A stretch of 55,335 nt of DNA from a virus (IMGVR_UViG_3300025782_000015:1-55335); one strand, 5' to 3'; positions 4,096 through 54,103 are shown, counted from the first letter of the stretch. Program-made: numbers and translations. The notes: generated by a model from the sequence alone, not told the origin.

Positions 4096-4122
4096 CCCAA
4101 AGTAAATATGTTTACTTATGGG
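4096..4122 (+). promoter_or_regulatory. late-type promoter inside an SD-masking hairpin
   Basis: CCCA-AAGTAAA/TTTACTT-A-TGGG stem; TAAATA 4103-4108; SD GGGAG overlaps the 3' arm. Confidence 0.6.
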
Positions 4123-4131
4123 AGCAACATC

Positions 4132-4458
4132 ATGGATAAAACACTATCACACCACTTAACAGAACTTCAGGCAATCAACAAGCAAAGAAAATATTGGCTA
4201 GTATTGAGCATGTTCGTCTTGATCATCATTTCATACATCATATTCGATTGGACAAAAATAACTAAAGATCAATGGTACTTCTGGATTTTGATAAGTCTAG
4301 GTTTAACCATATCTGTTGTATGGTGGTACTGGACCATGCGAGTCGTTAGAATAATGTTACATCATAGATTAGAAGAAACCGAAATCCTACACGATTTGGT
4401 TTTGGATATCAAGGACATTAAGAAAAATGTCAAAGAGTACTTGACACCTAATAAATAA
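4132..4458 (+). CDS. two-TM membrane protein (possibly holin/antiholin-like)
   Basis: ATG 4132 after GGGAG; two hydrophobic helices. Confidence 0.6.
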   Translation: MDKTLSHHLTELQAINKQRKYWLVLSMFVLIIISYIIFDWTKITKDQWYFWILISLGLTISVVWWYWTMRVVRIMLHHRLEETEILHDLVLDIKDIKKNVKEYLTPNK

Positions 4459-4470
4459 CCATGTTATAAT
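4441..4470 (+). promoter_or_regulatory. sigma70-type promoter for queD
   Basis: TTGACA-N18-TATAAT with TGn extension. Confidence 0.8.
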
Positions 4471-4487
4471 ATCTATAACACACAGTT

Positions 4488-4532
4488 AGTCGTCTTACAT
4501 GGCATTCATCCGACTTTAAATATTCTGCATGT
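4488..4532 (+). ncRNA. candidate cis-regulatory pseudoknot (preQ1-I riboswitch-like) in queD leader
   Basis: AGTCG/CGACT stem interleaved with ACATGGCA/TGCATGT stem; CATCC just before the 3' strand of stem 1; about 90-nt leader. Confidence 0.5.
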
Positions 4533-4567
4533 CATCAAACTTGCTACTTTTTAAAAGGAGACTAGAG

Positions 4568-5098
4568 ATGGCAAAATTCTACTCAACAAAAACTTACGGC
4601 AACGACAGAGGTCTGTCTTGCTGTTTTAGACAATGGCGTGCCACGCACAGCCACTGCTCAACATTACATGGATACTCAATTGGTATCAAACTAATCTTTG
4701 AATGCGATACACTAGACGAAAAGAACTGGTGTATGGACTTTGGTGGACTTAAAGAATTCAAAGCGTGGGCCGACTATATGTTTGATCACACACTAGTTAT
4801 TGCAGAAGATGACCCACATTTGAAGTTCTTCCAACAAATGGCTAATATGGGAAATATCCCAAGTTCAGGTAGTGGCGACCAAGGTTTCGATAAACTAGAA
4901 CCATATCAACGTGGTGCTTTATGTGATTTACGTATTGTACCCGGTGTAGGCTGTGAAATGTTTGCCAAACTTGCATACGACAAGATGGCTGAACTATTAG
5001 TGTCTGGTAATATGCGTTATCCAATTAATCCAACCGTTAGGATCAAATCAGTTGAAGTATTTGAACATGGTGCTAATTCGGCTACGTACGAAGGATAG
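4568..5098 (+). CDS. queD: 6-carboxy-tetrahydropterin synthase (QueD/PTPS family)
   Basis: SHCSTLHGY (CxxxHG), DFGG, FDHT, GCE, VEVFE; SD AGGAG, ATG 4568. Confidence 0.88.
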   Translation: MAKFYSTKTYGNDRGLSCCFRQWRATHSHCSTLHGYSIGIKLIFECDTLDEKNWCMDFGGLKEFKAWADYMFDHTLVIAEDDPHLKFFQQMANMGNIPSSGSGDQGFDKLEPYQRGALCDLRIVPGVGCEMFAKLAYDKMAELLVSGNMRYPINPTVRIKSVEVFEHGANSATYEG

Positions 5099-5113: not shown

Positions 5114-5142
5114 TTGACCTTTACCTGGCTGTATTGTATAAT
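5114..5142 (+). promoter_or_regulatory. sigma70-type promoter
   Basis: TTGACC-N17-TATAAT, flanked by TTTTACCA/TGGTAAAA inverted repeat. Confidence 0.7.
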
Positions 5143-7598: not shown

Positions 7599-10500
7599 AT
7601 GACCAATATTATCAAGCAGGTTATTAACGTAGGTAGCCAATCAAATGACGGTACTGGAGACAGTATACGTGACGCATTTACCAAAGTAAACACAAATTTT
7701 GACACGTTATACGCAGTCGCAGGTATCGGCAATGGACTATTGTTTACCAGCTTACAAGACGCACCAACAACACTACAAGCTCAGTCGCTTCTTGTTACAG
7801 ATACTAGTGGATTAACTATCACACAAGTGGCCCTAGTTGGTTCAGACGGTATTCAACTTACTCTAAATTATTCAACTAGTCCGGCTACACTTACTGTTGC
7901 CAGTACTATAACTTCCCTAATAAGCGACCCTGCTCCAGAAATTCAATCAGGTGCTAACCTAAATGGTAACGGTACAGCTCGTGCTATAAATTTCGCAGAT
8001 CCACAGCGAGATACAGATTTAGTTACCAAAGAGTGGGTCGAACAGAACTTCTTAAACAGAGATGCACTATATTCGTATGATACAGGCATCCCCCCAAATC
8101 AATCAACTTCTACAATAGTAGAAGGTAGTACTCTAAGACATAATATTGTATTACAACCATCTGTTGTTCAAACATCCACTAACGTTGGAAAGGTTATCAG
8201 TGTTTTCAATTCTAGCGGAACAACTGCTACCATCGACCTGGCTTATCAGGCATGGAAAGAAACACATCTAACACGCAAAGATTATGTCGATACCAAGATA
8301 AGTTTACAGGGTATCAGTACTATAGATTCGAACACAGGACAAGTAAATCCTGGATTTGGTCAGATGACAGGCGCACTACAACTGTTCCGAGATCCTAACG
8401 AAACAGATAGTCCGCTAACTGCGGCCACAAAGAATTATGTAGATTCTACAGGATTCCCAAGTCAAAGCAACTTCTTCGTAGCGTTAAACGGTAATGACAA
8501 TAGAACAGATATTCCAATTTACAAACGCGGCCGTGCATGGGCATGGGCATTTAGATCTGTTAACAAGGCCGCACAAGCCGCCGAAGCATTCCAAAACACT
8601 AGTCAAATAGTTTTAGGACCTTATGTTAAAACTATCACTACAGATAACTTTACAAATCCTGTAAACATCATTCAGATAACATCTAGTAGTGTTCCTAATG
8701 GTGTTAAACTTGTAGTCAACTATGACGGCTCGGCTGGTACTGATCCATTTATCAATTCTAGTATCTATCCAGGTATATATTTAAAAGGTTGGGACACAGG
8801 TGCGACAGCAGAAATCGTAAACGTGGTCGATCAAGGTGGCGGTACAGAATACTATGAAGTTGTTCCAGTTGACTATGCATCGGGATTCAATACTTCGGTT
8901 AAGGCATTGGGCACTACAGGAACTGTAACTGTTAATCTATTGAATCAAAATCTAGTGTCTGTTCCGGACTTCTGGGTAGATTATACTTTTGTTCTTGACA
9001 ATTCAGTAGGCGGTGGTCAGGGTACTATTATCGGTAGCGACATTTATTACGATGCTAACGGCAATGTTTTTGACAATATTATAGTTGAAGTAACAGTACC
9101 ATTCGGACAATCTAACGTAGCTATTCCTAGCGGAAATTGGCACGTTTATGCAGGTGACTTTACTAATCCATCTAATAACTATGGTGGATTTGCAGTAGGG
9201 GAACAATTAAAATACGGTCAAGCATATAACAAGACCGAAGTTTCGATTCGTATTGAATCAGGCGAATATGATGAAGATTTGCCTATCAGATTATCAGATA
9301 ACATATCAATAGTAGGCGATGAATTCCGCCGTAGTATGGTACGTCCAGGTCGCTGGCCTGATACACAACGTCCATTGCGTACAACTAGCCCCTATGCTAA
9401 TTTGTATTTTAGACGTGATACGCAAGTTGACGGAATGATCATTGTCGAACTTAACACGTTGACTAACTATGCATCTGCGGCCGCAGTAACTCCAGATGGT
9501 GTTACTAATAATGCAAACACAGGTGTTGTTAACTTTACATTAAACACCGGTACTGCCCAAACAAGTTGGGTTAATAAAGTGTTCGTCGGAGCTGGTGGAC
9601 AGGGTACTATTACATCAGCTAATGGTTCTGTGTTTACCGTTAATGTAGCAGAAAATGCTAGCGGGGTACAAGCACTAAATTCATCAACGACTATTAGCAC
9701 CGGATCTTGGCAAATATATGCGCCTATCAACTTTGGATACCACTATCTAAAAGATCCAACCAAACCTATGAACTTGTTAGGATGGGAACCAGGTGGTGGT
9801 TTGAGCAACCCCGGTGGCTATAATAATGCAAGTGACATCTTATTAGCTAATAAACAATTCATTCAAGAAGAAACTATTCGATATCTAAATGCCAACGGTG
9901 GAGAGACACAATATGTTTATGATCAAGCAAAATGGAAACGTGATGTTACTTATTTTGTTGAAGGCCTAGCCTATGATTTACATGTAGGTGGAGTAAGCAG
10001 AACTATTAACCTGCCAGAATTTTACTTTACAGGTAATGATACCGGTGTACCTCAAAATGAACTTCAGTATTTAGAATCTGCAATTACATATATAGGTCAA
10101 TTAGCTTCTCAGGTAATGACTAATTCAACCGGAACTGTTGCTAGATATCAATCAACAGTAACGCAAGTATTTTCTACGCTACCTCTTGAAACAGGATCTA
10201 GTTCTACAGTCATAGCCCTGTGTTCAACTATCAATACTATATTAGCGGGTACAAACCCTGCATACAATCCAGGTAAGTTTAATAATCAGTTAGATGTGTT
10301 CTTAATGAATGACGCTACTATGATTCGTTACTTAGCAGGTCAGGGACATGGCGGATTCATGAAGGTACTTGACCCTTATGGACAGATTAAAGCCAAGTCG
10401 CCATATACACAAACAGCATCGTCATTCTCAGAAAGCATAGGACGTCATCGTTTTGCAGGTGGATTCTTTGTTGACGGATTTACTGGTAACATGCAGTTAA

Positions 10501-13500
10501 ATCCAACATCGTCTACTGCTGGTACCAATGCCAATGGAGATTATGTTTCTATTCCTGTACAAGGCTATGCACTTTCATTACGTAAACCATTAACTCCTTG
10601 TTTCTTTGTTTACAGTGGTATCCAGTATCAGATTGATTATATTTCTAATTGGAACCCATCAGCTGGTGTTAACAATGGTACCGCAGTACTTAATCTAGAT
10701 CCTAACAAGGCAGGAGGAATAGAAAGTGTTTCACTAAGCGGAACTTTAAATACCTTCCTTCCAAATGCCAATATCCCTGTTACTATCAGTAACCCTACAT
10801 CAGCAGGCGGTCTGCCAGCAACTGGATATGTAACTACCGATGGTAGTGGTACTATACAATCAATGACTATTACCTTTTCAGGTACTGGATATGTAAGATC
10901 AACTGATGTCGGTTATAATGCCAACACCATGTCCATTAACTATGTTATAGGACAAGCTACATTTAACGCAACAATCATCAGCGGATCTATCGTAGGATTA
11001 ACAGTTAGCAATCCGGGTTCAGGTTATACAACCAGCACTCCAATTAATATCGCGGCACCATCCGGTGGCGTTGCGGCACGTGCTACTATTACCAGCGTCA
11101 ACGGAACTGGCGGCATTACTGGAGTATCAATTATTTCTGGAGGTAGTGGATACCAAACAATTCCTGCTATTACATTCGGTAACAGTAATATTGTTTATTC
11201 TACAGTGATCAAGAAAGGTTTCATTGGCACATTACCGGCATTAATAGAAACTGTTACAGCTGGTAACAGAAGTATGTTGGCCAATGACTTTACACAGATC
11301 AACGATTATGCTTATGGTATTTTTGCTACCAACGGCGGATTTATTGAAAACGTTAGTATGTTCTCATACTATTGCTGGACTTCATACTATGCCCTAAACG
11401 GCGCTCAGTTAAGAACTATTACAGGTTCTAGTGCATATGGTACCTATGGATTGATCGCTGAAGGATCAGATCCAACAGAAATTCCATTAGCTGTTACAGA
11501 GCCAGACGAGTTCCAACAAATTGCTACGATTTATAACCAACCGCCGTATACAAATATCGCAGGCGGAGTTTTAGTTTACATACAATTACAAGGTGCAATT
11601 AGTTTTGTACCATACGATGAAAGCTTCATGGATGTTAACCTAAATGGTAACTTCCAAACTTATACTGTTAAGGGTGCTACATTTATTACTACAGCATCGG
11701 GTGGTTCGTATGTTTACTCACTGAATATCGATACCGCCGGTGGAGTGTCTGGCTTAACAACAGCGATTCCAGATCAAACTTCTGTGGTATTGCGTACAGG
11801 CCCGCAATTTAGAGTAAGCGGTATCAATGCGGCAACTATTACTCGTCCAAGTACTGTTTTAACTTTATTTGAAGATCCTACCAATGTGTATCGTGTTTTA
11901 GAATATACAGACTTAGGTAATGACGTTGCCCTAGCAGAAGCTGATCAAAATTACGATTACATAAATCTAAGCCCGTACACACAGGCCAACATCTATAGAC
12001 AGGGTATTGTAAATCCAATTATTTCTAGTTCTGGTACTAACTATACAGGTTCTATTTCAACATTAACATTTGCAACACCAAGTCCATTTACCGTAACTGC
12101 GGCAGTTAATGGAACTCAAGGCACGGCGTCTTCCCCTGTATCATCATTCTTAATTGGTGGTACTGTGGGTGGTGCTATAATCCATCCGGGTATGAGCGTA
12201 AGTGGTACTGGCATTGTGTCAGGAACTTATGTAACTTTCTATTCATCTACAAGCAACTATGTTGCATTTAATCAATCACAGTATCTAACAGGCGGAACAA
12301 CATTAACATTTACTGCTGTAACTGCTACAGGTTATGCAACTATCGCAAGCGGTCACGTAGCGGGTGTAGTTATTACAGATCCAGGTGTTGGTTATAATAC
12401 TGCTCCTGCTGTAACAGCACAAACTCCTGCAGGTGGTACAAGTGCTAGTATTACAGTTAGCCTAGCAGGTGTAGTAGGCAGTAACTATTTCAAAGTTGTT
12501 GACGTTGGTGCTAAGAATTATTCACGTTTCCAATTATCGCAAGATATTAATAATAACAGTTACTACTATAGATTTGGCTACGAAGGCAAGATCTATAACA
12601 TCACAGATTACGATCCACCAACTGCAACTACCCCATGGGGTGTGCTAACAGTACAAAGTTTCAGTACTGGTACAGGACTATTAACTGAGATCGATGCTCG
12701 TACAGCATTTGCTAGTGTGGGTGCTAATACCACAGGTAGCATTACTGTACGTATATCAACACTACGTGCTACATCACACGATATGGTTGACGTTGGTACA
12801 GGTGGTTATGCAACAACCAAGATTCCAAATGACTTGTACGGACCTCCACTAATTGCTCCTCAACAAAGTCACGAAGTTATTGAGAAATCAAGAGGTCGTG
12901 TTTACTATGTAACAACTGACCAAGATGGTAATTTCCGTGTTGGTAAGTATTTTGCCGTTGATCAAGGTCGAGGTACTGTTACCATTAATGCTCCAATCAG
13001 TTTAACTGGTGTTGCAGGTTTACAATTCAAGAAGGGTGTGTTAGTTAATGAGTTTTCTAGCGATGTTACAATGGCTGAAAACTCAAATCAAGCTGTTCCA
13101 ACACAACAGGCTATTATCGGTTACCTAGATAGAAGATTAGGTACACAAGTTAGTGGTGCGTTGTTTAACGGAAGTGGCGCAACACTAGGCCCAGGATTCC
13201 TACCATTAACAGGTTCTAACGCAGGAGGTGGTTTACCTCAGATGAGTGGTTCGATCAATATGAATCAAAACACTCTGTATAATCTTCCTGTTCCAACACA
13301 ACCAAGTTATGCTGTTAACAAATCATATGCCGATACTAAGATCAGTTTGTTAGGCATGAGTGAACAACAAAATAATGGTGGACAACTTGCAGGAGTTATG
13401 ACTGGACCGTTGGTATTAGTTGGTAATCCAACAACAGCTACTTCGGTTCTATCACAAACAGCCAATGCATCAGCAACTATTCTTTATCTAAATACCAGCA

Positions 13501-15341
13501 CACTATATCTAGGTATGCAATTGAATAGCACTTCTGTAGCCACTGGTACAGTTATCAGCTCTTTTGGACCAGGTTATATACAATTAAGTGCTCCATTGGT
13601 CAGCACTATAAATTCAGGTTCGACTCTAGTATTTGATCCTATACATCAAGCCGCAACTAAACAATATGTTGATGCAACTAGTCAGATTAGTCAACTACGT
13701 GACGTTACTTTAACATCACCAGCTAATCAAGACTTGTTGATGTTGACCACTGTACAGCAACCTGTTATACAGGCCAATGGTGGTCCATTATACAATACAT
13801 CTACGATCGTAGTTAACGTATCTAATAATACAGCCAATCCAACCAATACAAGCATTGCTAGTAGTGGTGGTAGTGATGTTTCATTCACAAGAAGCGGAAA
13901 CAGCTTGACTGTTAAACTTACTGGCGGTACTGTAGGTGGTGCTAATAATCCAATCACAGACTATCATGTAAACGGTTCTGCACAAATACAGCAAAGCAAG
14001 TTGTTAATGACTGTTGCCACTGCTAGTGCAAGTAGTCCTACAGGTACACAACAACAGATCCAGGCTAACTTAGGTCTAGCACAATTTAATAGTTCTCAGT
14101 TTGCATTAACAAATGGTTGGGTAACTCACGCCACTGCTTCGAGTATCAACAACGGTGTTCCATACAATGCATTACAATGGGTTCCAGGATCTACCACAGG
14201 CGGCTTGTTAGGTAGTGTTGCATTAGGTAATGCAGATGCGGCAGTAACAGCGTTAAGCTCATCAACTGTTCGTACATGGTTGAATGTGGGAAGTTTATCA
14301 GCAGGTGGTAACTTTACTGGTGCTGTAACATTCTCCGGAGGCGTTACAGTAAACACCAACAATATGGATGTACAATCTACGTTGTATACACATAACATTT
14401 ACCCAGATGCAAGTAACACATATAGCATCGGTAGTGGCAGTGATGTTTATGCAAGTATGTATGCTACAACATTCTATGGTGCGTTTAATGGTAGTGGTGC
14501 AAATTTAAACAGTATACCAAATAGTGCGTTAAACAACAATTCAGTAACTGTTACTGCCGGCACAGGTATGAGCGGCGGCGGTAGTGTTGCACTAGGTAGC
14601 TCTGTTACATTAAGTAACGCAGGTGTTACATCGATCGCAGGGTCAACAAACGTTAGTGTAAGTGCGGCAACTGGTGGTGTAACAGTAAGTTTACCAGGTA
14701 CCCTAAGCGTAAACATTTCGGGCAGTTCAGCATCTTGTTCAGGTAACGCGGCAACTGCAAGTGCTCCATCGGGTGGTGGATCATTTATTACAAGTAGCAA
14801 TATCGGTAGCCAATCAGTTAACTATGCCACTTCTGCGGGATCTGCGGGATCTGCGGGATCTGCAAGTTCAGTACCTTGGAGCGGCATTACCGCTGTACCT
14901 AGTCTAGTATACAATAATGGCGGAACTTATAGTATTAGTATTTCAGGTAACGCGGCTACAGCTAACTATGCTGACTTGGCAGAAAAATACTTACCAGATG
15001 TGCAATATGCTCCAGGAACTGTTGTCATATTTGGCGGAGATAACGAAATCACACAAAGTACTATTGCAAATGATAGAAGAATAGCAGGTGTGATATCGAC
15101 TCAACCAGGTCTGATGATGAACAGTCAATTAGAAAACGGACAATATGTAGCGTTACAAGGTCGTGTTCCGACACAGGTAGTAGGTACTATCAAGAAAGGT
15201 GACTTAATGGTAACCAGCGACATATCAGGAGTTGCAATGGCAAACAATGATCCTAAGATGGGAACTGTAATTGGTAAGGCCTTAGAAGATTACGATAGCA
15301 CCGAAGTTGGTGTGATTGAAGTTGTTGTAGGACGAGTATAA
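7599..15341 (+). CDS. giant tail fibre / receptor-binding protein with C-terminal autoproteolytic intramolecular chaperone (Peptidase G2-like)
   Basis: N-terminal NDGTGDSIRDAFTKVNTNF; repeated (A)TK.YVD and G.GY..P motifs; C-terminal YADLAEKY...GRVP...KGD...IGKALE. Confidence 0.85.
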   Translation: MTNIIKQVINVGSQSNDGTGDSIRDAFTKVNTNFDTLYAVAGIGNGLLFTSLQDAPTTLQAQSLLVTDTSGLTITQVALVGSDGIQLTLNYSTSPATLTVASTITSLISDPAPEIQSGANLNGNGTARAINFADPQRDTDLVTKEWVEQNFLNRDALYSYDTGIPPNQSTSTIVEGSTLRHNIVLQPSVVQTSTNVGKVISVFNSSGTTATIDLAYQAWKETHLTRKDYVDTKISLQGISTIDSNTGQVNPGFGQMTGALQLFRDPNETDSPLTAATKNYVDSTGFPSQSNFFVALNGNDNRTDIPIYKRGRAWAWAFRSVNKAAQAAEAFQNTSQIVLGPYVKTITTDNFTNPVNIIQITSSSVPNGVKLVVNYDGSAGTDPFINSSIYPGIYLKGWDTGATAEIVNVVDQGGGTEYYEVVPVDYASGFNTSVKALGTTGTVTVNLLNQNLVSVPDFWVDYTFVLDNSVGGGQGTIIGSDIYYDANGNVFDNIIVEVTVPFGQSNVAIPSGNWHVYAGDFTNPSNNYGGFAVGEQLKYGQAYNKTEVSIRIESGEYDEDLPIRLSDNISIVGDEFRRSMVRPGRWPDTQRPLRTTSPYANLYFRRDTQVDGMIIVELNTLTNYASAAAVTPDGVTNNANTGVVNFTLNTGTAQTSWVNKVFVGAGGQGTITSANGSVFTVNVAENASGVQALNSSTTISTGSWQIYAPINFGYHYLKDPTKPMNLLGWEPGGGLSNPGGYNNASDILLANKQFIQEETIRYLNANGGETQYVYDQAKWKRDVTYFVEGLAYDLHVGGVSRTINLPEFYFTGNDTGVPQNELQYLESAITYIGQLASQVMTNSTGTVARYQSTVTQVFSTLPLETGSSSTVIALCSTINTILAGTNPAYNPGKFNNQLDVFLMNDATMIRYLAGQGHGGFMKVLDPYGQIKAKSPYTQTASSFSESIGRHRFAGGFFVDGFTGNMQLNPTSSTAGTNANGDYVSIPVQGYALSLRKPLTPCFFVYSGIQYQIDYISNWNPSAGVNNGTAVLNLDPNKAGGIESVSLSGTLNTFLPNANIPVTISNPTSAGGLPATGYVTTDGSGTIQSMTITFSGTGYVRSTDVGYNANTMSINYVIGQATFNATIISGSIVGLTVSNPGSGYTTSTPINIAAPSGGVAARATITSVNGTGGITGVSIISGGSGYQTIPAITFGNSNIVYSTVIKKGFIGTLPALIETVTAGNRSMLANDFTQINDYAYGIFATNGGFIENVSMFSYYCWTSYYALNGAQLRTITGSSAYGTYGLIAEGSDPTEIPLAVTEPDEFQQIATIYNQPPYTNIAGGVLVYIQLQGAISFVPYDESFMDVNLNGNFQTYTVKGATFITTASGGSYVYSLNIDTAGGVSGLTTAIPDQTSVVLRTGPQFRVSGINAATITRPSTVLTLFEDPTNVYRVLEYTDLGNDVALAEADQNYDYINLSPYTQANIYRQGIVNPIISSSGTNYTGSISTLTFATPSPFTVTAAVNGTQGTASSPVSSFLIGGTVGGAIIHPGMSVSGTGIVSGTYVTFYSSTSNYVAFNQSQYLTGGTTLTFTAVTATGYATIASGHVAGVVITDPGVGYNTAPAVTAQTPAGGTSASITVSLAGVVGSNYFKVVDVGAKNYSRFQLSQDINNNSYYYRFGYEGKIYNITDYDPPTATTPWGVLTVQSFSTGTGLLTEIDARTAFASVGANTTGSITVRISTLRATSHDMVDVGTGGYATTKIPNDLYGPPLIAPQQSHEVIEKSRGRVYYVTTDQDGNFRVGKYFAVDQGRGTVTINAPISLTGVAGLQFKKGVLVNEFSSDVTMAENSNQAVPTQQAIIGYLDRRLGTQVSGALFNGSGATLGPGFLPLTGSNAGGGLPQMSGSINMNQNTLYNLPVPTQPSYAVNKSYADTKISLLGMSEQQNNGGQLAGVMTGPLVLVGNPTTATSVLSQTANASATILYLNTSTLYLGMQLNSTSVATGTVISSFGPGYIQLSAPLVSTINSGSTLVFDPIHQAATKQYVDATSQISQLRDVTLTSPANQDLLMLTTVQQPVIQANGGPLYNTSTIVVNVSNNTANPTNTSIASSGGSDVSFTRSGNSLTVKLTGGTVGGANNPITDYHVNGSAQIQQSKLLMTVATASASSPTGTQQQIQANLGLAQFNSSQFALTNGWVTHATASSINNGVPYNALQWVPGSTTGGLLGSVALGNADAAVTALSSSTVRTWLNVGSLSAGGNFTGAVTFSGGVTVNTNNMDVQSTLYTHNIYPDASNTYSIGSGSDVYASMYATTFYGAFNGSGANLNSIPNSALNNNSVTVTAGTGMSGGGSVALGSSVTLSNAGVTSIAGSTNVSVSAATGGVTVSLPGTLSVNISGSSASCSGNAATASAPSGGGSFITSSNIGSQSVNYATSAGSAGSAGSASSVPWSGITAVPSLVYNNGGTYSISISGNAATANYADLAEKYLPDVQYAPGTVVIFGGDNEITQSTIANDRRIAGVISTQPGLMMNSQLENGQYVALQGRVPTQVVGTIKKGDLMVTSDISGVAMANNDPKMGTVIGKALEDYDSTEVGVIEVVVGRV
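14832..14863 (+). repeat. 9-bp in-frame tandem repeat (TCTGCGGGA)x3.5 encoding SAG
   Basis: Three perfect copies plus TCTGC. Confidence 0.9.
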
Positions 15342-15342
15342 T

Positions 15343-18300
15343 ATGGCGGCACCAGTTTGGGCTACCCAGGCAGGATTCCTGGGTACATTCACACAAGAAA
15401 TTCAGTTCGTTGCAACTGGATCTACTATCACTTTGCAACTGCAAACTGTTTCGCCCGACGCTACATTCTCAATCATTAGCGGTTCTCTCCCTAGCGGTTT
15501 ACATGTCTACCCAGGCAACGGTATCATCTATGGTACTCCGTTTTACACCAATCAAGTTGTAACAAGCAATTTTGTAGTACGTGCAACTAATTCCGACGGT
15601 GTTGCTGATAGAACATTTAGTATGGATATTGCAGGACCTACAGACCCAGTCTGGGTTACTAATTCAGGCCTACTACCTGTTGGACCAAATGGAGAGTTAT
15701 ACGCATTGAATCTAAGTCGCGTATACATCCAGCTAAATGCTACGACTCCTAAATTGCCAAATGGTCACTTAATGCGTTACTATCTTAAGAGTAATGCAGG
15801 TCAATTACCGCCAGGACTAACAATAAATCAACAGGGATTGATATCTGGTGTAGTTGATGATGTTCTTAGTTTAGATTACCTGGCTAACATTGACGGCGGG
15901 TATGATGAAGAATTTTATGACTCTGCTCCTTACGATCACGTTGTAATATTAAGAACTGAAAAGCAAGGCCGACCAGAAGCAATAGCTAAAATTTATGAAT
16001 TTACTGTGGTCGCCACAGATGGTGTATCTAGCAGTCAACAACAATTTTTAATACGAGTAGAAGATCCAAACTCTCTTAGAGCAGATAACGTAGAGTTGAA
16101 TGACAAGAGTGTTACTGTCATAGGAACTCTAGGCTCTAACACTCTACAAGTAACCAGCAACACTAGTACTACGATGCCTAGTCTTGGTTCTGCTATATTT
16201 GGGCCGCAGGATTCTACAGGTGCTCCGTTAGTCGTACAAGAAAATCCAGCAAGCTATGTTGAATCTATAAACTTTACTAATAAGACATTTACTATTAATT
16301 CAACATTGATTAGTGACTACAATGGCAGTTTGTTCTATAGAGCTCCTTTACTCAATGAAGGTATAGGAGAAAACACAGCATTATCCGGTGATAGCTCTGT
16401 ATTCAAATCAGACATTGGATTCACTGTTGCCCCTGAATGGATTGATAGCAACGGTGTTGCATTACCGAAGGTTGCTAATTTAGGAACATTTAGATCTAAC
16501 AACTATCAAATAATCCAATTAGAAACATACGATCCTAATCCTTATGGAGGGTCAGTAACCTACGATTGGTTGTCTCGTGTTTACAATCCTGAAATACTAA
16601 TGGTCACAGATTCTGTGTTCAATGCCGCAGGTATACCAACAGCAAACCTATTTGGTCAATCTAATTTGTATGTCAAATCTGTATCTGCTGTACCTACTGT
16701 AGGTATGCAATTTAAATTAGATGGTTATGTAAATGGTGCCGACAATAAAATTTATACTATAGCAAGTGTAACAGCCTATGCTGGCGGTTATGCTCTCGGG
16801 CTAGGAGTTTATACAAAGTATATTGGTAATCTAGCAAACAACGCACAAACTCCTACTATAGGATACAATACTACATATAACTTACCTCCACAGATAACTG
16901 CAACCGCAAGCGGAGATGCAGGATCCACTGTATTATCTATTGTTAATATACTTGCCGTTACTGTAGGAATGACTGTAACTGGCCAAGGTATACAAAACTA
17001 TTCAAAGATACTGAACATCAATTCAGTAACACGTACTGCTACACTAAGCGAACCGTTATTGTCAGATCTTATTAATGTAAAATTAACTTTTGGCCCTGGT
17101 CTAGGAGATCTATATCAGTATAGAAATACTATAAGCAATAGCGTACATTATGTCGTATGGACTGACAACGGTTGGGTTGATTACGAAGAAGATCCGGGAT
17201 TAATTGCATCAGGTCCTGGTGTTATCAAACTTAGCACTAAAATTTTAGATACTACAAATATCTACACAGGTAGTAAAGCAATTCACCCTTCGGGATTGAA
17301 GTTAAATCCTGTGACAGCTGAATTGTACGGTGTACTACCATATCAACCTAGCTATAGCGAAACTTATAAATTTACCGTTCGTGTAACTAAACAAGACTAT
17401 TCAACAGGCGATATAGTATACAAAGATCAAATGTTCCTATTGACATTACAGGGGCAAGTACAAACTCAAATAGAATTTATTTCTACAGGATCAGTTGGAG
17501 TTCTAGTACCAGGTCAACCCTCTGAATTACAAGTAGTTGCACAGCATACTGACAACAGCAATTTAAGCATCAACTATATACAAACAGGTGGCAAGTTACC
17601 GCAGGGAATCACGCTACAGCGAGACGGAACTTTAGTTGGCACAGTACCTTATGGAAATCTTACATCTATCGATGTTAATTCTATTGGGTTCAATAAATTT
17701 AGTCTAGATCAAGGATCTACTACATTTGATAAAGAATTTTCATTCAATGTAACTGCCAATGACGTATATCTGTTGTCTAGTGTGACCAAGACATTTAATG
17801 TAAAGATCAACGAATATACTCCTGTACTATACACAGGAATATATTTCAAACCATTGATGGCAGTATCCAGTCGTCAATATTTTAGAGATCTAGTACAAAA
17901 TTATAATGTATTCAGTACAGACTTGTTGTATCGTCCAGAAGATCCTAACTTTGGTGTACAAAATTCTGTCAAGATGTATTTGGAATATGGGTTACAAGAA
18001 CTTAATCTAGACTACTATATGCCGGCGTTGGTTAACTATTTTAAACGTAAGCGTTTTTACTTTGGAGAAATAACCAGTGCCATAGCACAAGATTCTCTAG
18101 GCAACGATGTATACGAAGTTGTTTATGTAAATGTCATAGACGATCAGATGAACGGTAATATCAATCCCGGTGCTAGTTTCTCTGAAAAGGTAGGAGGAGT
18201 AGTAACTACATTCTATCCAGACTCAACTGGTAATATGCAAACAGCATTAGAAAATATTTCCGTGAGCACTAATGCTAGCGGTGTCATAAGTGTTGATTCG

Positions 18301-18669
18301 ACCTTTAGACCAAAATTCATGCAGTCTATACAAAGTTCAACAGGAACTCCGTTAGGCTTTGTTAAAGCAGTTATCCTGTGTTATGCACTTCCCGGTAAAG
18401 CATCAGAGATCATTTCACGAATTAATACTCTAAACTTTGACTTCAAACAACTAGATTTTGATGTTGATAGGATCTACATAGAGAAAAGTTTAACCACTAC
18501 TTCAACAGCATATTTGCTGTTTGGTACTGGTGCAAGTTCTTCTGGTTTCAACTTGCAAACAGAGGATGGTATTTTGGATCCTGCAAGCCCAGAATACAAT
18601 GCACAATACATACAATTTATCGCCGATCAGGACATCACTACAGAAGCAGGCGTAGTTATTACCATATAA
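15343..18669 (+). CDS. baseplate/virion protein with putative Ig-like (He_PIG) repeats
   Basis: Repeated G.LP.GL.....G.I.G motifs followed by F.V.ATD/N; adjacent to fibre gene. Confidence 0.75.
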   Translation: MAAPVWATQAGFLGTFTQEIQFVATGSTITLQLQTVSPDATFSIISGSLPSGLHVYPGNGIIYGTPFYTNQVVTSNFVVRATNSDGVADRTFSMDIAGPTDPVWVTNSGLLPVGPNGELYALNLSRVYIQLNATTPKLPNGHLMRYYLKSNAGQLPPGLTINQQGLISGVVDDVLSLDYLANIDGGYDEEFYDSAPYDHVVILRTEKQGRPEAIAKIYEFTVVATDGVSSSQQQFLIRVEDPNSLRADNVELNDKSVTVIGTLGSNTLQVTSNTSTTMPSLGSAIFGPQDSTGAPLVVQENPASYVESINFTNKTFTINSTLISDYNGSLFYRAPLLNEGIGENTALSGDSSVFKSDIGFTVAPEWIDSNGVALPKVANLGTFRSNNYQIIQLETYDPNPYGGSVTYDWLSRVYNPEILMVTDSVFNAAGIPTANLFGQSNLYVKSVSAVPTVGMQFKLDGYVNGADNKIYTIASVTAYAGGYALGLGVYTKYIGNLANNAQTPTIGYNTTYNLPPQITATASGDAGSTVLSIVNILAVTVGMTVTGQGIQNYSKILNINSVTRTATLSEPLLSDLINVKLTFGPGLGDLYQYRNTISNSVHYVVWTDNGWVDYEEDPGLIASGPGVIKLSTKILDTTNIYTGSKAIHPSGLKLNPVTAELYGVLPYQPSYSETYKFTVRVTKQDYSTGDIVYKDQMFLLTLQGQVQTQIEFISTGSVGVLVPGQPSELQVVAQHTDNSNLSINYIQTGGKLPQGITLQRDGTLVGTVPYGNLTSIDVNSIGFNKFSLDQGSTTFDKEFSFNVTANDVYLLSSVTKTFNVKINEYTPVLYTGIYFKPLMAVSSRQYFRDLVQNYNVFSTDLLYRPEDPNFGVQNSVKMYLEYGLQELNLDYYMPALVNYFKRKRFYFGEITSAIAQDSLGNDVYEVVYVNVIDDQMNGNINPGASFSEKVGGVVTTFYPDSTGNMQTALENISVSTNASGVISVDSTFRPKFMQSIQSSTGTPLGFVKAVILCYALPGKASEIISRINTLNFDFKQLDFDVDRIYIEKSLTTTSTAYLLFGTGASSSGFNLQTEDGILDPASPEYNAQYIQFIADQDITTEAGVVITI

Positions 18670-36623: not shown

Positions 36624-39600
36624 ATGTTTCTAAACGAAATATTCAAACGCAAACTCACAGAAGGTGGTAACTTATCTAGCCACGACATTACAGGAAAGCC
36701 TACTGTTGGTTATACACAAGGTGTTCCCGGCACTCACGTTGCAGAAAAAATAGATGCAAAAAATCGTTCAGCAATGGTGCCTGTAGTTAAACAACTATTG
36801 GTTGACATTAACAATACATTTGCCAGACAATATGGTAGACACATTTGGAGCCCCGAGCTAATAGAAAAAGAAGTACACACATTTATTAGCGGTAGCAGTA
36901 AATGGTTCATGTTCTTGCGTCAACCAAATCCATCTTTTGATCCACGCCAACCAGAATCAGAAAATAATCCAAAAGAAATTGGCATCACAGATGAACAATT
37001 CAGACGTGTTAAAAAGAAAGTAGGCGATATTGATACTCAAATAGATCGCAGACTAGAACCACAACTAACTGAATTCATACAGAAGAACAATGGCAAGAAT
37101 ATAGGAAGTGCTACACTAATAGGATACAAAAAAGGATCTGACCAATGGCTAGCACATTGGAGAATACATGAGCCTCCTATTACTCTACAAGTTGATTTAG
37201 AATTCAGTGACTATACTACAGATGCTAGAGGTTTTGAAATTCCCACAGAATGGGCGCAAGTTAGCCACGGTAGTCAAATAGAAGATCTAGAAAATGAAAT
37301 TAAAGGTGTGTTCAGACAATGGTTATATCGTTCTTTAGCAAAGGTTCCTCCATCGACTAAAGAAAAGGATGATGGAACTACTAACACACAGGAAAAATAT
37401 ATTGCCAAGGTAACAGGAGCAGGAAAAAATAAAGCCATGCGAGTGTTCGGCGGCGATGACGGTAAAGAACAAGTTACAGATTTTGATAATCCTCCTCCGC
37501 CATACCATGATGCTAATTTTAGTTTTGCGGTAGCAAGCGTAGGTGGTGGTGGCGTTCGTGCAAAATATCGCGAACCTAACGAAGATGAAAATGTCCCTAA
37601 AGAGATTAATGGTGTACCTGTTTTAGTTCCTCTAAAGCCAGACGAAAGCGAATATATTAAAGACATGAGTCAGCAGTTCGAACAGTTCTTTGGAGTTCTT
37701 CCAACTGGCAACGAACAAAGAATGATGCATAGTCTAGTTGGTACTGTGTCTCTAATGCAAGATCACATGGATGAAGCACAGCATCAAGTTGCTGTTAAAG
37801 AGTTTATTAATCTATGCTTTGGCAAGGCCGCACAAATGATCGAAGCAGACGATCCTACTTCTGATTTTAAAATTAAAATCATTGCCATTGATTATCTATT
37901 AGATAACTTAGGCATGAAGCAAATGCGTCCTCAGGTCTTAGAAATGGCCAAACAGTATGAGCAAGCATATCACGCCAAGAAGGGCGGCGATCAATTAAAT
38001 GAAGCAGAAGAACCAGCAGTTAAAGCACAGTTACGCAAAGGTATGCCACATCTGCATGATCTTAAATCAGCAGACTTCTTAGATCTTTTAGACGAGATAC
38101 ATGATGGCAATGGCAATTTTAAACTACAGAACATTCCTTTAAACGTCAAGGTAGACGGCTTTGGTGGTCGTTTTGGTAAGAATGCCGAAGGCAAGCCTTT
38201 CATGGGTACCAGTCGTACTGAGCCAAGATATGAACCAGGATTCGTAGCGTATCATGAAAAGAAAGGTACAACTGATCCGGAGATATTAGGTCGCGCTAAA
38301 ACTTTTGATGATCTGTTTGAAGAAATGATGAAGGCTATCAAATTAGTCGATAGTAAATTAGGTCCTGACTTTTTAGTTGACAAACAGGTTACATGCGAAG
38401 TACTATTCCTGCCATTTGCTACAGAAACTCCAGAAGGCAAATTAAAGTTTGTAGGCATACACTACGACAAATTACCTAAGGGTGTACAGTTAGCCCTAGT
38501 ACCATTCCATATTGTACAGGCCAAGACAGGCGAACCCCTACCAGATGGCGACAAGTATATTGACAAATTGTTAAGTGTAGGACAATCTGGTAGCGTCATG
38601 TTTATTAATAACAGGCTTACACAAAATGAAGCACTGGATGTAACCGCATTAGTTCCTCCGCTAGAAAACATAGAACAAATGAAGGCTATGCTAGCCAGCA
38701 AGAAACGTGACCAGGCCGCTGAGGTTAAAGCCGCACTTGAACCAGTTAAAATAGCATTAGAAAAAGCAATCATCGAAGATCCTAATATTGTTGGCAAAGA
38801 AATGTTAGGTAAGGACTACGAAGGTATTGTCATCAATAGTCGACTAGGTCCTATCAAAGTAACTAGCCAAGAGCAACGCGATGTTATCTCGGCTAAAAAT
38901 GCGGCCAAGGCATCGGCTAGAACAGAACGTCCAAGAGGCGAAAATAAGACAGCAGTTGTTGCCATCGGATCATTTGTCGGACATATAGGTCACGAACAAC
39001 TATTCGATTACACAATAAAGAAAGCACAACAAGTAGGTGGTGATCCTTATTTGTTTATCGGCAATGCAGAGGGTAAGAAGGATCCTATTCCTGTAGCCGA
39101 CAAAGTTAAAACTTGGCATATGATGTATCCGCAATATGCTAATAACATTAGTACTGTTACTCACGAAGGTGGTACACTATTACAAAAGATTAAACACGAA
39201 CTAATCAACCCACTGCCTGGTAAACCTCCACGTTATGATAATATCATTATCATGGTAGGCGAAGATCAAGCAGGGCTTACTATGCCGCAGGCCTTAATGA
39301 AGGCTGTGAATAAGTTCCCAGGTTACGAACATGTTAAAGTACATTTAGAAGTTACGCCCCGCGGAACTGGTATGAGCTTTACAAAATTGCGCGACATCCT
39401 AAAGGATCCAAACGCAACTCCAGAACAACAATTAAAAGTTTGGTGCCAGGGATTTGATGTTAAAAAGTTAGGTGTTAAATGGATCGCACATCTAATGGCA
39501 TTAACAAAACATGGTATGGGCATAGCAGACAAACAACCAGAACCGGTAGGAGAACGTATGTTACCTAAAAAGGCATTTGCAGGATCAAATAAAAATAAAC

Positions 39601-52488: not shown

Positions 52489-53285
52489 TGAGTAAAATAG
52501 GAATTGTAGGATTAGGATTTGTAGGCGGGGCTATTGCCGCATCTTTCTGGGATGTTGGTCAGTTGGTTCGAGTAGACTCAGACAAAAAGCGTGGTCCAGA
52601 TCCTTTTCAAGATCTAGCTATGTGCGATGGTGTGTTTGTTTGTGTGCCAACACCACAAGATGATGACGGAACATGTGATACAAGCATCTTAGAAGACATT
52701 CTGGCAAAACTAAAAAGGATGGATTATCAAGGTGTTATTATCAGCAAGTGTACTGCTCCTCCCCATACTTACACCCGGTTAAATGCAGAGTTTCCTAATC
52801 TAGTTCATGCTCCAGAATTTTTAACTGCGGCCAATGCAGTTAAAGATTATGCTAATGGTACATTTGCTATCATTGGTGGTCGTGTTAAAGCATACCGTGA
52901 TCTAGCAGAAACTATTATCCGCGGCACACAACCCGATTTACAATCAGTTGCGCATTGTACTATCGGTGAAGCAAGTTTGGCAAAATATACTATCAATTGT
53001 TTTATGAGCACCAAAGTTATATTCATGAATGAATTGTATAATTTGGCACAAGCAAGCGATTGCGATTATGGAACCATTGCAAATATGGTTAAGATGGATC
53101 CTCGCATCGGTAACAGTCATATGCAGGTTCCAGGACCAGATGGTTCGTTTGGATTTGGTGGCGCATGTTTTCCAAAAGATACAAGTGCATTACTCAAATA
53201 CGCAGAAGAAATGGGCGTTCAATTAAACATATTAGATTCAGTCGTAAAGAAGAATTTGGTATTACGCTTGACAGAACCTAAATAA
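52488..53285 (+). CDS. ugd: UDP-glucose/GDP-mannose dehydrogenase family protein (no C-terminal domain)
   Basis: GLGFVG, CVPTP, PEFL, KY..N, D.RIG, GFGGACFPKD. Confidence 0.9.
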   Translation: MSKIGIVGLGFVGGAIAASFWDVGQLVRVDSDKKRGPDPFQDLAMCDGVFVCVPTPQDDDGTCDTSILEDILAKLKRMDYQGVIISKCTAPPHTYTRLNAEFPNLVHAPEFLTAANAVKDYANGTFAIIGGRVKAYRDLAETIIRGTQPDLQSVAHCTIGEASLAKYTINCFMSTKVIFMNELYNLAQASDCDYGTIANMVKMDPRIGNSHMQVPGPDGSFGFGGACFPKDTSALLKYAEEMGVQLNILDSVVKKNLVLRLTEPK

Positions 53286-53335: not shown

Positions 53336-54103
53336 TTGACAACATTTACATCAGAAGATTTACAGAACGTCTTAGCTGGCGCTGATCAGCAAGGCGATGA
53401 CAACAAAGAATACAAAGAAGCTAATCTAGCAGACTATATTCGTTTCAACATGAAACGAAACAACAAACGTTTCTGGGCTGGAGACAACATCAGTGAATAT
53501 GTAGTCGGACATAAAGATGAACTGATTGCTAATGCTACTAAGGCATTTGAAGATGTATTAGATGCACTTCTAATCGATCGTGAAAACGATCCTAACTCAA
53601 AAGGCACAGCCAAACGTATGGCTAAAATGTATTTTAACGAGATAATGGCAGGTAGATATGAACCAGCACCAGATGCAACAAGTTTTCCAAATGAAGTTGA
53701 AGATGGTTATAAAGGCATGCTTGTTGTACGTTCTGAGTTACGAAGCATGTGCAGTCATCACCATCAGCCTGTTAATGGTGTTGCTTATATTGGCATCATC
53801 GCCGCTGACAGACTTATCGGTCTATCTAAGTATACTAGGATCGCTCAGTGGTGTGCTCGCCGCGGAACACTACAAGAAGAACTCTGCAACGACATCGCAA
53901 GAGAAATCAGTGCGGCAACAGGTTCAAAGAACGTAGCAGTTTACATTCAAGCTACACACGGTTGCTGTGAGAATCGTGGTATTATGGCAAAGAGTTCATT
54001 AACTCAGACTACCGTATTAACAGGTGCTTTCAAAGACGATGTTGATACTAAAAAAGAGTTTTTTGACAACATTAAACTACAACAAGAGTACGCAACTAAA
54101 TGA
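53336..54103 (+). CDS. folE: GTP cyclohydrolase I
   Basis: T..R.AK, SMCSHH, GLSK..R, QE.L, H.C...RG; TTG start. Confidence 0.95.
   Translation: MTTFTSEDLQNVLAGADQQGDDNKEYKEANLADYIRFNMKRNNKRFWAGDNISEYVVGHKDELIANATKAFEDVLDALLIDRENDPNSKGTAKRMAKMYFNEIMAGRYEPAPDATSFPNEVEDGYKGMLVVRSELRSMCSHHHQPVNGVAYIGIIAADRLIGLSKYTRIAQWCARRGTLQEELCNDIAREISAATGSKNVAVYIQATHGCCENRGIMAKSSLTQTTVLTGAFKDDVDTKKEFFDNIKLQQEYATK

Follow-up and report, generated by a model that had tools for sequence, protein, structure and literature searches.

The window analysed here, that is, the whole stretch of DNA of 55,335 nucleotides, comes from the record of an uncultured lake phage; this 55-kb fragment is estimated to be 15% complete. 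It carries phage-type and host-like genes, including those for ClpP, a ClpB-like ATPase, DnaJ, PhoH, a family B DNA polymerase, UvdE and superoxide dismutase, and a gene for GTP cyclohydrolase I is found at 53336-54103. Two of its ORFs are very large (7599-15341, 2580 aa, and 15343-18669, 1108 aa), and the 1108-aa ORF carries an Ig-like He_PIG domain. The 177-aa ORF at 19935-20468 matches no more than a short segment of the NTPase domain of DNA polymerase III alpha, and the gene may be split or incomplete.

The stretch flagged by the first-pass annotation is preceded by a small membrane-protein ORF (4108-4458) and followed by a 176-aa gene of the T-fold/PTPS family; it is bordered by the following features.

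4441..4470 (+): sigma-70-type promoter agreeing with the consensus at 12 of 12 positions (TTGACA 4441-46, 18-nt spacer, TATAAT 4465-70)
4568..5098 (+): queD-like gene, a T-fold/PTPS member of 176 aa (PF01242, E = 3.6e-15)

The consensus promoter named by that annotation is confirmed at all 12 positions, and is of the extended -10 type, with a TG upstream of TATAAT (TGtTATAAT, 4462-70). Transcription probably starts near 4477. The leader from there to the ATG at 4568 measures about 91 nt, in agreement with the length given by that annotation. The actual start of the queD-like gene is this ATG, preceded by the Shine-Dalgarno (SD) sequence AAGGAG at 4555-60; the ATG at 4529 merely opens the longest ORF. 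Directly past queD there is a second near-consensus promoter (5114-5142; TTGACC, 17 nt, TATAAT), and the 73-aa ORF downstream of it has a weak AbrB/MazE-type match.

The product of the queD-like gene scores 33.8 bits against TIGR03367, the QueD equivalog model, below the cut-off of 89.25, and is thus placed at the level of the PF01242 family alone. The canonical QueD zinc motif combines a Cys with His-Gly-His (HGH); the protein encoded here reads HC..LHGY. A search by sequence gave no relative of it in the PDB.

The leader pseudoknot and its covariation

Two alignments were used: A1, a MAFFT alignment of the upstream regions of protein-found loci (53 rows, 48 of them distinct), and A2, a model-guided alignment of 99 distinct copies. 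The region 4488-4535 (~48 nt) forms an H-type pseudoknot with a P1 of 5 bp and a P2 of 5-7 bp, composed as follows.

4488..4492 (+): P1 5' strand, AGUCG, pairing with 4511-15; 99.2% paired, four of the five pairs changed on both sides
4493..4498 (+): L1, UCUUAC; C4494 is invariant in A1 and in 99 of 99 A2 rows
4499..4505 (+): P2 5' strand, AUGGCAU, covarying with 4529-35; the letters AUGGCA are those of 4568-73, the start-codon region
4506..4510 (+): L2, UCAUC; C4510, directly 5' of the P1 3' strand, is invariant (99 of 99 rows in A2)
4511..4515 (+): P1 3' strand, CGACU, covarying with 4488-92
4516..4528 (+): L3, 13 nt, UUAAAUAUUCUGC; A4518, A4520, A4522, U4524, C4525, G4527 and C4528 are invariant
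4529..4535 (+): P2 3' strand, AUGUCAU, covarying with 4499-4505; 4530-35 are common to the sequestor hairpin described below

The first helix had been proposed exactly as we find it, AGTCG at 4488-92 with CGACT at 4511-15, and its pairing and double changes (four of five pairs) hold over 48 distinct relatives. Its closing G-C pair is present in 47 of 48 A1 rows and in 99 of 99 A2 rows, and P1 as a whole is 99.2-100% paired, the A2 sources having been pre-filtered for a perfect P1 (loci L045 and L079, with one P1 mismatch each, were thereby excluded from A2, yet are in A1). An unbiased test of P1 is offered by the search pattern, which contains the 3' half of this helix only: a perfect 5-bp Watson-Crick partner lies upstream in 102 of 112 distinct segments, against 1.7% when the 3' strands are swapped between loci.

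For the second helix the register had to be changed. The bulged pairing suggested earlier, ACATGGCA (4497-4504) with TGCATGT (4526-32), is 60.6% paired and has two of seven pairs changed on both sides, whereas ATGGCAT (4499-4505) with ATGTCAT (4529-35) is 77.7% paired in A1 and has seven of seven pairs changed on both sides. The former was rejected on covariation and the latter kept. In A2 pairing is preserved at about 85-93% for the five inner pairs of P2, each being unpaired in 7-15 of the 99 rows; many copies are closely related, so that such cell counts overstate the number of independent events. The covariation score of A1 is 0.504, compared with 0.164 after shuffling (a value of this size was reached in 0 of 500 shuffles) and at most 0.128 with the partners slid; that of A2 is 0.492, compared with 0.151. 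Covariation in homologous queD leaders, which had been asked for with the original fold, is present for the pseudoknot in its changed register, both helices covarying at about 0.5 against 0.15-0.16 for shuffled alignments.

Ten positions never vary in A1, a set that was not selected by RNA features: G4492, C4494, C4510, A4518, A4520, A4522, U4524, C4525, G4527 and C4528. A2 carries a caveat in this respect, in that the search pattern already prescribed most letters of L2, the first letters of the P1 3' strand and some of those in L3. Clustered at the P1/P2 junction are the invariant C4494 and C4510 together with the alternate A's and the UCUGC of L3. The CATCC noticed previously at the loop-stem junction is real and conserved, L2 reading UCAUC with an invariant final C, and the base 5' of this C is U in 76, C in 16 and A in 7 of the 99 A2 rows. 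L1 varies in length among relatives. L3 is constant at 13 nt in the protein-found set and its 3' end, UCUGC, is invariant; the fixed A's of this loop occupy alternate positions only (3, 5 and 7), and its fourth position may be A, C or T.

The letters TAAATA at 4517-22, which the first-pass annotation read as a late promoter able to bypass the structure, are present, but they fall within L3, where the alternate A's alone are conserved. The word TATAAATA, which we take to be the T4-type late-promoter consensus, occurs twice in the window against 6.15 occurrences expected by chance. On these two grounds a late promoter inside L3 was rejected.

Nested minimum free energy (MFE) folding detected no unusual stability (z = -0.71 for the window fold and -0.03, -0.25 and -0.92 for further folds), a measure that is uninformative here because the element is a pseudoknot. 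The upstream regions of 159 distinct relatives contain a sigma-70-like promoter in 49 cases, with the end of the -10 box 6-9 nt ahead of P1 in 39 of these, and ATAAATA alone, 5-23 nt ahead of P1, in 32. Since the promoters differ in this way, it is the RNA that is kept.

Phage distribution and the associated genes

Relatives of the queD-like protein are encoded by 379 viral stretches. The pseudoknot is found upstream in 74 of the 80 protein-found loci that were kept; in the other six (L023-L027 and L055) it is absent because the gene abuts its upstream neighbour. A motif pattern that combines L2 and L3 with the first letters of the P1 3' strand between them occurs in at least 116 viral stretches, and R1, a covariance model built from A1 that models the P2 pairs only, gives full-length matches at E <= 0.01 in 77 of 80 scored pattern stretches. 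Exactly one copy is present in each of 10 relatives' contigs (10-316 kb). In the window R1 likewise finds a single copy, at 51.2 bits, the next best match scoring 11.3; this match (38898-38967) and another of 9.9 bits (52824-52872) are both internal to ORFs, and we attribute them to chance.

A collection of prokaryotic genomes, one for each of 185,579 species, was searched with a more specific pattern and yielded seven places, all of them true copies. All seven are on MAG contigs of 4-32 kb and all precede a QueD-like frame (two of these are cut by the contig end); the upstream coding sequence is of the phage-locus kind in two. We read these contigs as putative binned phage DNA. A blastn search of 50,697 GenBank phage records with two aptamers returned chance matches only, and a match in Pantoea phage MED16 was discarded as lying inside a CDS on the other strand. 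The regions upstream of queD in the cultured phages Motura, BUCT-ZZ01, PhiXhv-15 and Pan1 (four of 107 homolog records) contain no copy, the best score being 9.2 bits. The six loci and four cultured phages that do without the element indicate that it is dispensable.

The link to phage QueD-like genes is exclusive. A QueD-like N-terminus lies directly downstream in 176 of 181 loci; among the five exceptions, three have the QueD-like gene further within the operon, one (L008) has an in-frame stop and one (L216) is truncated where its contig ends. A small operon lies behind the element in L223 (G008), L225 (G006) and L222 (G007), the operon types being a canonical QueD (HGH) with the QueD-like gene, a cupin with the QueD-like gene and a KdsA-like gene (presumably so, as it was named by eye), and an ORF of no known kind with the QueD-like gene and QueE. 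The proteins encoded behind the element belong to at least four or five diverged subfamilies, with many different flanking genes. The stop in L008, at codon 6 (MAKFY*TKTYGNDRG...), interrupts a gene that is otherwise intact behind an intact aptamer, and could be a sequencing error, the mark of a pseudogene or a case of recoding. Some QueD-like genes (L015, L033, L046 and relatives) seem to start with TTG (AAAUUGGCA), in the same register as the ATG.

Homologs from cultured phages are annotated as QueD-like and often adjoin QueC-like genes. The gene set of the phages considered here comprises FolE, the QueD-like protein, a QueE-like protein and a purine phosphoribosyltransferase-like protein. 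A divergent QueE-like radical SAM gene is present in four of five large relatives, and in two of them (G004 and G001) it stands beside or near a xanthine/guanine phosphoribosyltransferase-like gene. The QueE-like and phosphoribosyltransferase observations come from these places:

L227, 1348-2705 (-)
L230, 35-2391 (+)
L226, gene about 724 nt past the CUGC of the aptamer
BUCT-ZZ01 (L233)

In a lake cyanophage the genes for the phosphoribosyltransferase, QueD and FolE are consecutive. The contigs G001-G004 (228-316 kb) have 9 to 16 radical SAM matches each, most of them above the family cut-off and some clustered, and one 207-aa ORF on these contigs is closest to prokaryotic viperin-like proteins.

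No QueC was detected in the five relatives searched: the PF06508 'QueC' matches of G001 and G004 are NAD+ synthase and that of G005 fits no NCBIfam family. TGT (PF01702) was found in none of the five, which is no proof of absence, DpdA being divergent. A set of FolE, QueD-like and QueE-like proteins in which neither QueC nor TGT was detected points to a 7-deazapurine-like pathway and not to the textbook preQ0/DpdA set. By analogy with tubercidin biosynthesis, the set may serve to make a 7-deazapurine nucleotide ahead of replication.

Taken with the covariation of both helices, this distribution makes it as good as certain that the leader contains a structured, phage-specific cis-regulatory RNA. 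It belongs to none of the families catalogued in Rfam. Nothing in the window reaches a gathering score, and a set of 22 copies, consisting of window positions 4380-4680, L020 and 20 further diverse copies, was examined down to E <= 10. The matches at this level (fstAT, miRNAs and others) were set aside as chance, and none of the 22 copies matched any family; this holds at E <= 10 for the Rfam preQ1 models too, to which the original annotation had looked. As no catalogued family matches, no ligand can be borrowed from one. A full-text search of the literature found no paper describing this element; in the part of PMC4342423 available, the word riboswitch is mentioned in a reference title only.

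Alternative pairing with the start site and the proposed switch

The P2 3' strand can also pair with the start-codon region, and this pairing and that of the pseudoknot are mutually exclusive.

4530..4573 (+): sequestor hairpin competing with the pseudoknot; UGUCAUC (4530-36) pairs with GAUGGCA (4567-73), so that AUG 4568-70 is covered

Its inner pairs, 4540-50 with 4555-65, cover the SD AAGGAG (4555-60). The MFE of the sequestor fold (4529-4585) is -9.1 kcal/mol; the P2 duplex reaches -5.3 and P1 -3.0 kcal/mol. These predicted energies could represent a balance for a ligand to tip. When the ON state of the window is modelled, the remainder of the leader can still fold into a weaker hairpin near the AUG that extends into the start region (-9.7 kcal/mol in total), and in this model the release of the AUG may be partial.

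In the MFE folds of 122 of 134 distinct platforms, four or more of the first seven nucleotides past CUGC are paired to the SD/AUG window, compared with a high background of 53 of 134 in the shuffled-strand control. The P2 3' strand is reused in at least five platform designs, where it masks either the AUG or the SD or else pairs further into the coding sequence: GUCAUC...GAUGGC, GCCAUUG...CAAUGGC, CCUAUG...CAUAGGAG, GUCUUC...GGAGAC, CCUUAUU...AAUAAGG, or a partner within the coding region. The three strands change together. A P2 3' strand AAGUC is accompanied by the P2 5' strand GACUU and the start AUGACU in seven of eight cases, and AUGYC or GUGUC goes with GGCAU or GACGC and the start AUGGCA. 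As the P2 5' strand AUGGCAU has the letters of the start region, AUGGCA, it amounts to a decoy copy of that region. P2 is 20-40 nt ahead of the SD in most copies; the SD is only 4 nt past P2 in a few, such as L215, L218 and L163, and in L215 and L163 the P2 3' strand still folds into a hairpin around the start region.

A covarying, structured aptamer in the 5' leader and variable platforms overlapping one helix of that aptamer, both seen here, are generic features of riboswitches, and a conserved aptamer combined with variable overlapping platforms is a hallmark of these RNAs. We propose that 4488-4535 would serve as the aptamer in a translational riboswitch that acts in cis from the 5' terminus of the queD-like mRNA. 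The P2 3' strand would have two exclusive partners, the P2 5' strand in the pseudoknot and the start-codon/SD region in the sequestor. Without ligand the sequestor (4530-4573) would be the more stable form and initiation would be blocked; a small ligand at the P1/P2 junction would stabilise the pseudoknot and withdraw the shared strand from the sequestor, and with AUG and SD freed, translation would be turned ON. The direction depends on which form is bound: the invariant unpaired bases around the P1/P2 junction lead us to take the pseudoknot as the ligand-bound form, in which case binding releases the start site. We infer, then, that a metabolite binds, that the pseudoknot is its bound form and that the switch acts in the ON direction. 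On balance we think it probable that the element is a new, phage-only translational ON riboswitch of preQ1-I-like architecture.

The structure and the alternative pairing are silent on what stabilises the pseudoknot, and a phage protein or the QueD-like enzyme could bind it as a translational operator and shift the same two-state equilibrium. T4 proteins act on their own mRNAs in this manner (the gene 32 leader pseudoknot, RegA, gp43), and phages, to which the element is confined, could carry a dedicated binding protein. Such an operator nevertheless seems unlikely to us: the element follows the QueD-like gene over at least four to five subfamilies and many flanking genes with no co-occurring binding protein seen, its invariant single bases at the helix junction resemble a small-molecule pocket, and, as stabilisation of the pseudoknot frees the start, binding by the gene's own product would be positive autoregulation, which is unusual. 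If the ligand is a small molecule, the RNA might still be a preQ1-I relative, though a very divergent one, which has preQ1 or preQ0 as its ligand and works as an OFF switch, for example with the bound pseudoknot blocking the ribosome near the SD and the sequestor serving as a folding intermediate. The 5-bp P1 with its invariant closing G-C, the invariant C with U or A before it and an L3 rich in A would fit this, as would the SD 4 nt past P2 in L215, L218 and L163. We find it quite unlikely all the same, given the lack of an Rfam preQ1 match in 22 of 22 copies, the 20-40 nt by which P2 mostly precedes the SD, the fold of the P2 3' strand around the start region in L215 and L163 too, and a three-way covariation which shows selection on the alternative helix itself.

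We give equally little credence to an RNA that needs no ligand, be it a kinetic or temperature switch or a 5'-terminal structure setting mRNA stability or a fixed level of translation. The position of the element at the extreme 5' end of the transcript, with the -10 box ending 6-9 nt before P1 in 39 of 49 cases, would suit such a role, but ten invariant unpaired or junction positions exceed the needs of a plain stability element, and conserved competition with the start site implies regulation. A signal at the level of DNA, such as the TAAATA/TATAAA letters serving as a late promoter, or a fold arisen by chance, is close to negligible: L3 is A/T-rich and does read TATAAA in some relatives, yet only its alternate A's are fixed, TATAAATA is under-represented in the window and the compensating changes in two helices are the signature of RNA.

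Candidate ligands and comparison with known systems

Under the ON riboswitch that we favour, the invariant C suggests a ligand with a guanine-like face. We infer that it is probably a flat heterocycle whose guanine-like Watson-Crick face is read by this C, and our guess at candidates includes a 7-deazaguanine (preQ0, preQ1 or CDG), a pathway pterin, perhaps dihydroneopterin triphosphate or carboxy-tetrahydropterin, and guanine. In the examples described in the available passages of PMC11625349 class I preQ1 riboswitches follow a gene-off logic, so that a biosynthetic gene under ON control calls for another one, such as the sensing of a substrate or signal. An end product would fit the ON logic less well than a purine signal or than a substrate or precursor (the FolE product, a pterin).

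A natural variant, with an identical aptamer on three contigs (L271, L294 and L313), has U in place of the invariant C before the P1 3' strand. It retains an intact P1 (4 bp), P2, promoter and sequestor and precedes a further T-fold subfamily (MAIEIKSTKRFKYLPCGH...). The U version of the pattern occurs in 86 stretches; three true copies among the 80 scored calibrate the chance background of such patterns.

Riboswitches are called rare in phages in the accessible part of PMC9004378, which gives as examples a glutamine riboswitch and one putatively controlling psbA in a cyanophage. We see as evenly balanced the question whether the element is the first virus-confined riboswitch class, a preQ1-I-like ON pseudoknot with which large aquatic phages would turn on their own 7-deazapurine/pterin enzyme in response to a pathway intermediate or purine signal of the infected cell, the rare U variant hinting at a second ligand. 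If it is a new class, well over a hundred distinct copies, found in phage DNA only and outside Rfam, would mean that phages evolve metabolite sensors of their own. It would also provide the RNA tool kit with a very small (~48 nt) ON-acting pseudoknot aptamer and structural biologists with a natural counterpart to preQ1-I of opposite logic, and the identity of the ligand would point to the product of the pathway and its timing.

Several known systems invite comparison. The T4 gene 32 leader contains an H-type pseudoknot that nucleates binding of the gene's own protein and represses translation. Our element similarly places an H-type pseudoknot in a 5' leader, that of a T4-like phage mRNA, and would control translation, but it competes with a start-site sequestor and is tied to an enzyme gene. 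THF-II (the folE motif) and purine-type riboswitches control pterin and purine genes and read a guanine-like face by conserved pyrimidines; they adopt hairpin or three-way-junction folds, unlike the phage pseudoknot, which gave no Rfam match to them. Classes preQ1-II and preQ1-III (RF01054, RF02680) are also pseudoknotted sensors tied to queuosine genes, and in class III the expression platform lies away from the pocket, as far as the available text of PMC11625349 describes them; they are, however, much larger and of different folds, and neither was matched here.

The closest likeness is to preQ1-I (RF00522). The accessible passages of PMC11625349 describe preQ1-I as an H-type pseudoknot that has a conserved G-C pair at the top of its canonical P1, a specificity C directly 5' of the P1 3' strand with U or A before it, an A-rich L3 in the P1 minor groove and, in types I and III, a UU above the P1 5' strand; in its class I examples either a short P2 buries SD bases or a terminator is favoured, and the gene is off. 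The phage element shares the small H-type pseudoknot and the 5-bp P1 closed by a conserved G-C, as well as the conserved C 5' of the P1 3' strand with mostly U or A before it, a base whose role in binding would here be by analogy. It shares in part the A-rich L3 after P1, with A invariant at L3 positions 3, 5 and 7, and it too sits ahead of a gene of the 7-deazaguanine pathway. In place of the UU its L1 has N (U 38, A 32, C 29), an invariant C, and U with extra bases; unlike the preQ1-I of the text cited, its L3 is 13 nt long with an invariant 3' UCUGC. Its P2 of 5-7 bp is without the SD and remote from it, the 3' strand of this helix doubles as anti-start/anti-SD strand, which would wire the switch ON, and the element is found in phage DNA only. 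What the first-pass annotation described as a preQ1-I-like pseudoknot in a queD leader thus stands as regards the H-type fold, the 5-bp P1, the C and the A-rich L3; membership of the Rfam preQ1 families is not supported. We do not file the element under preQ1-I, though its pocket might, by analogy, work in a preQ1-I-like manner.
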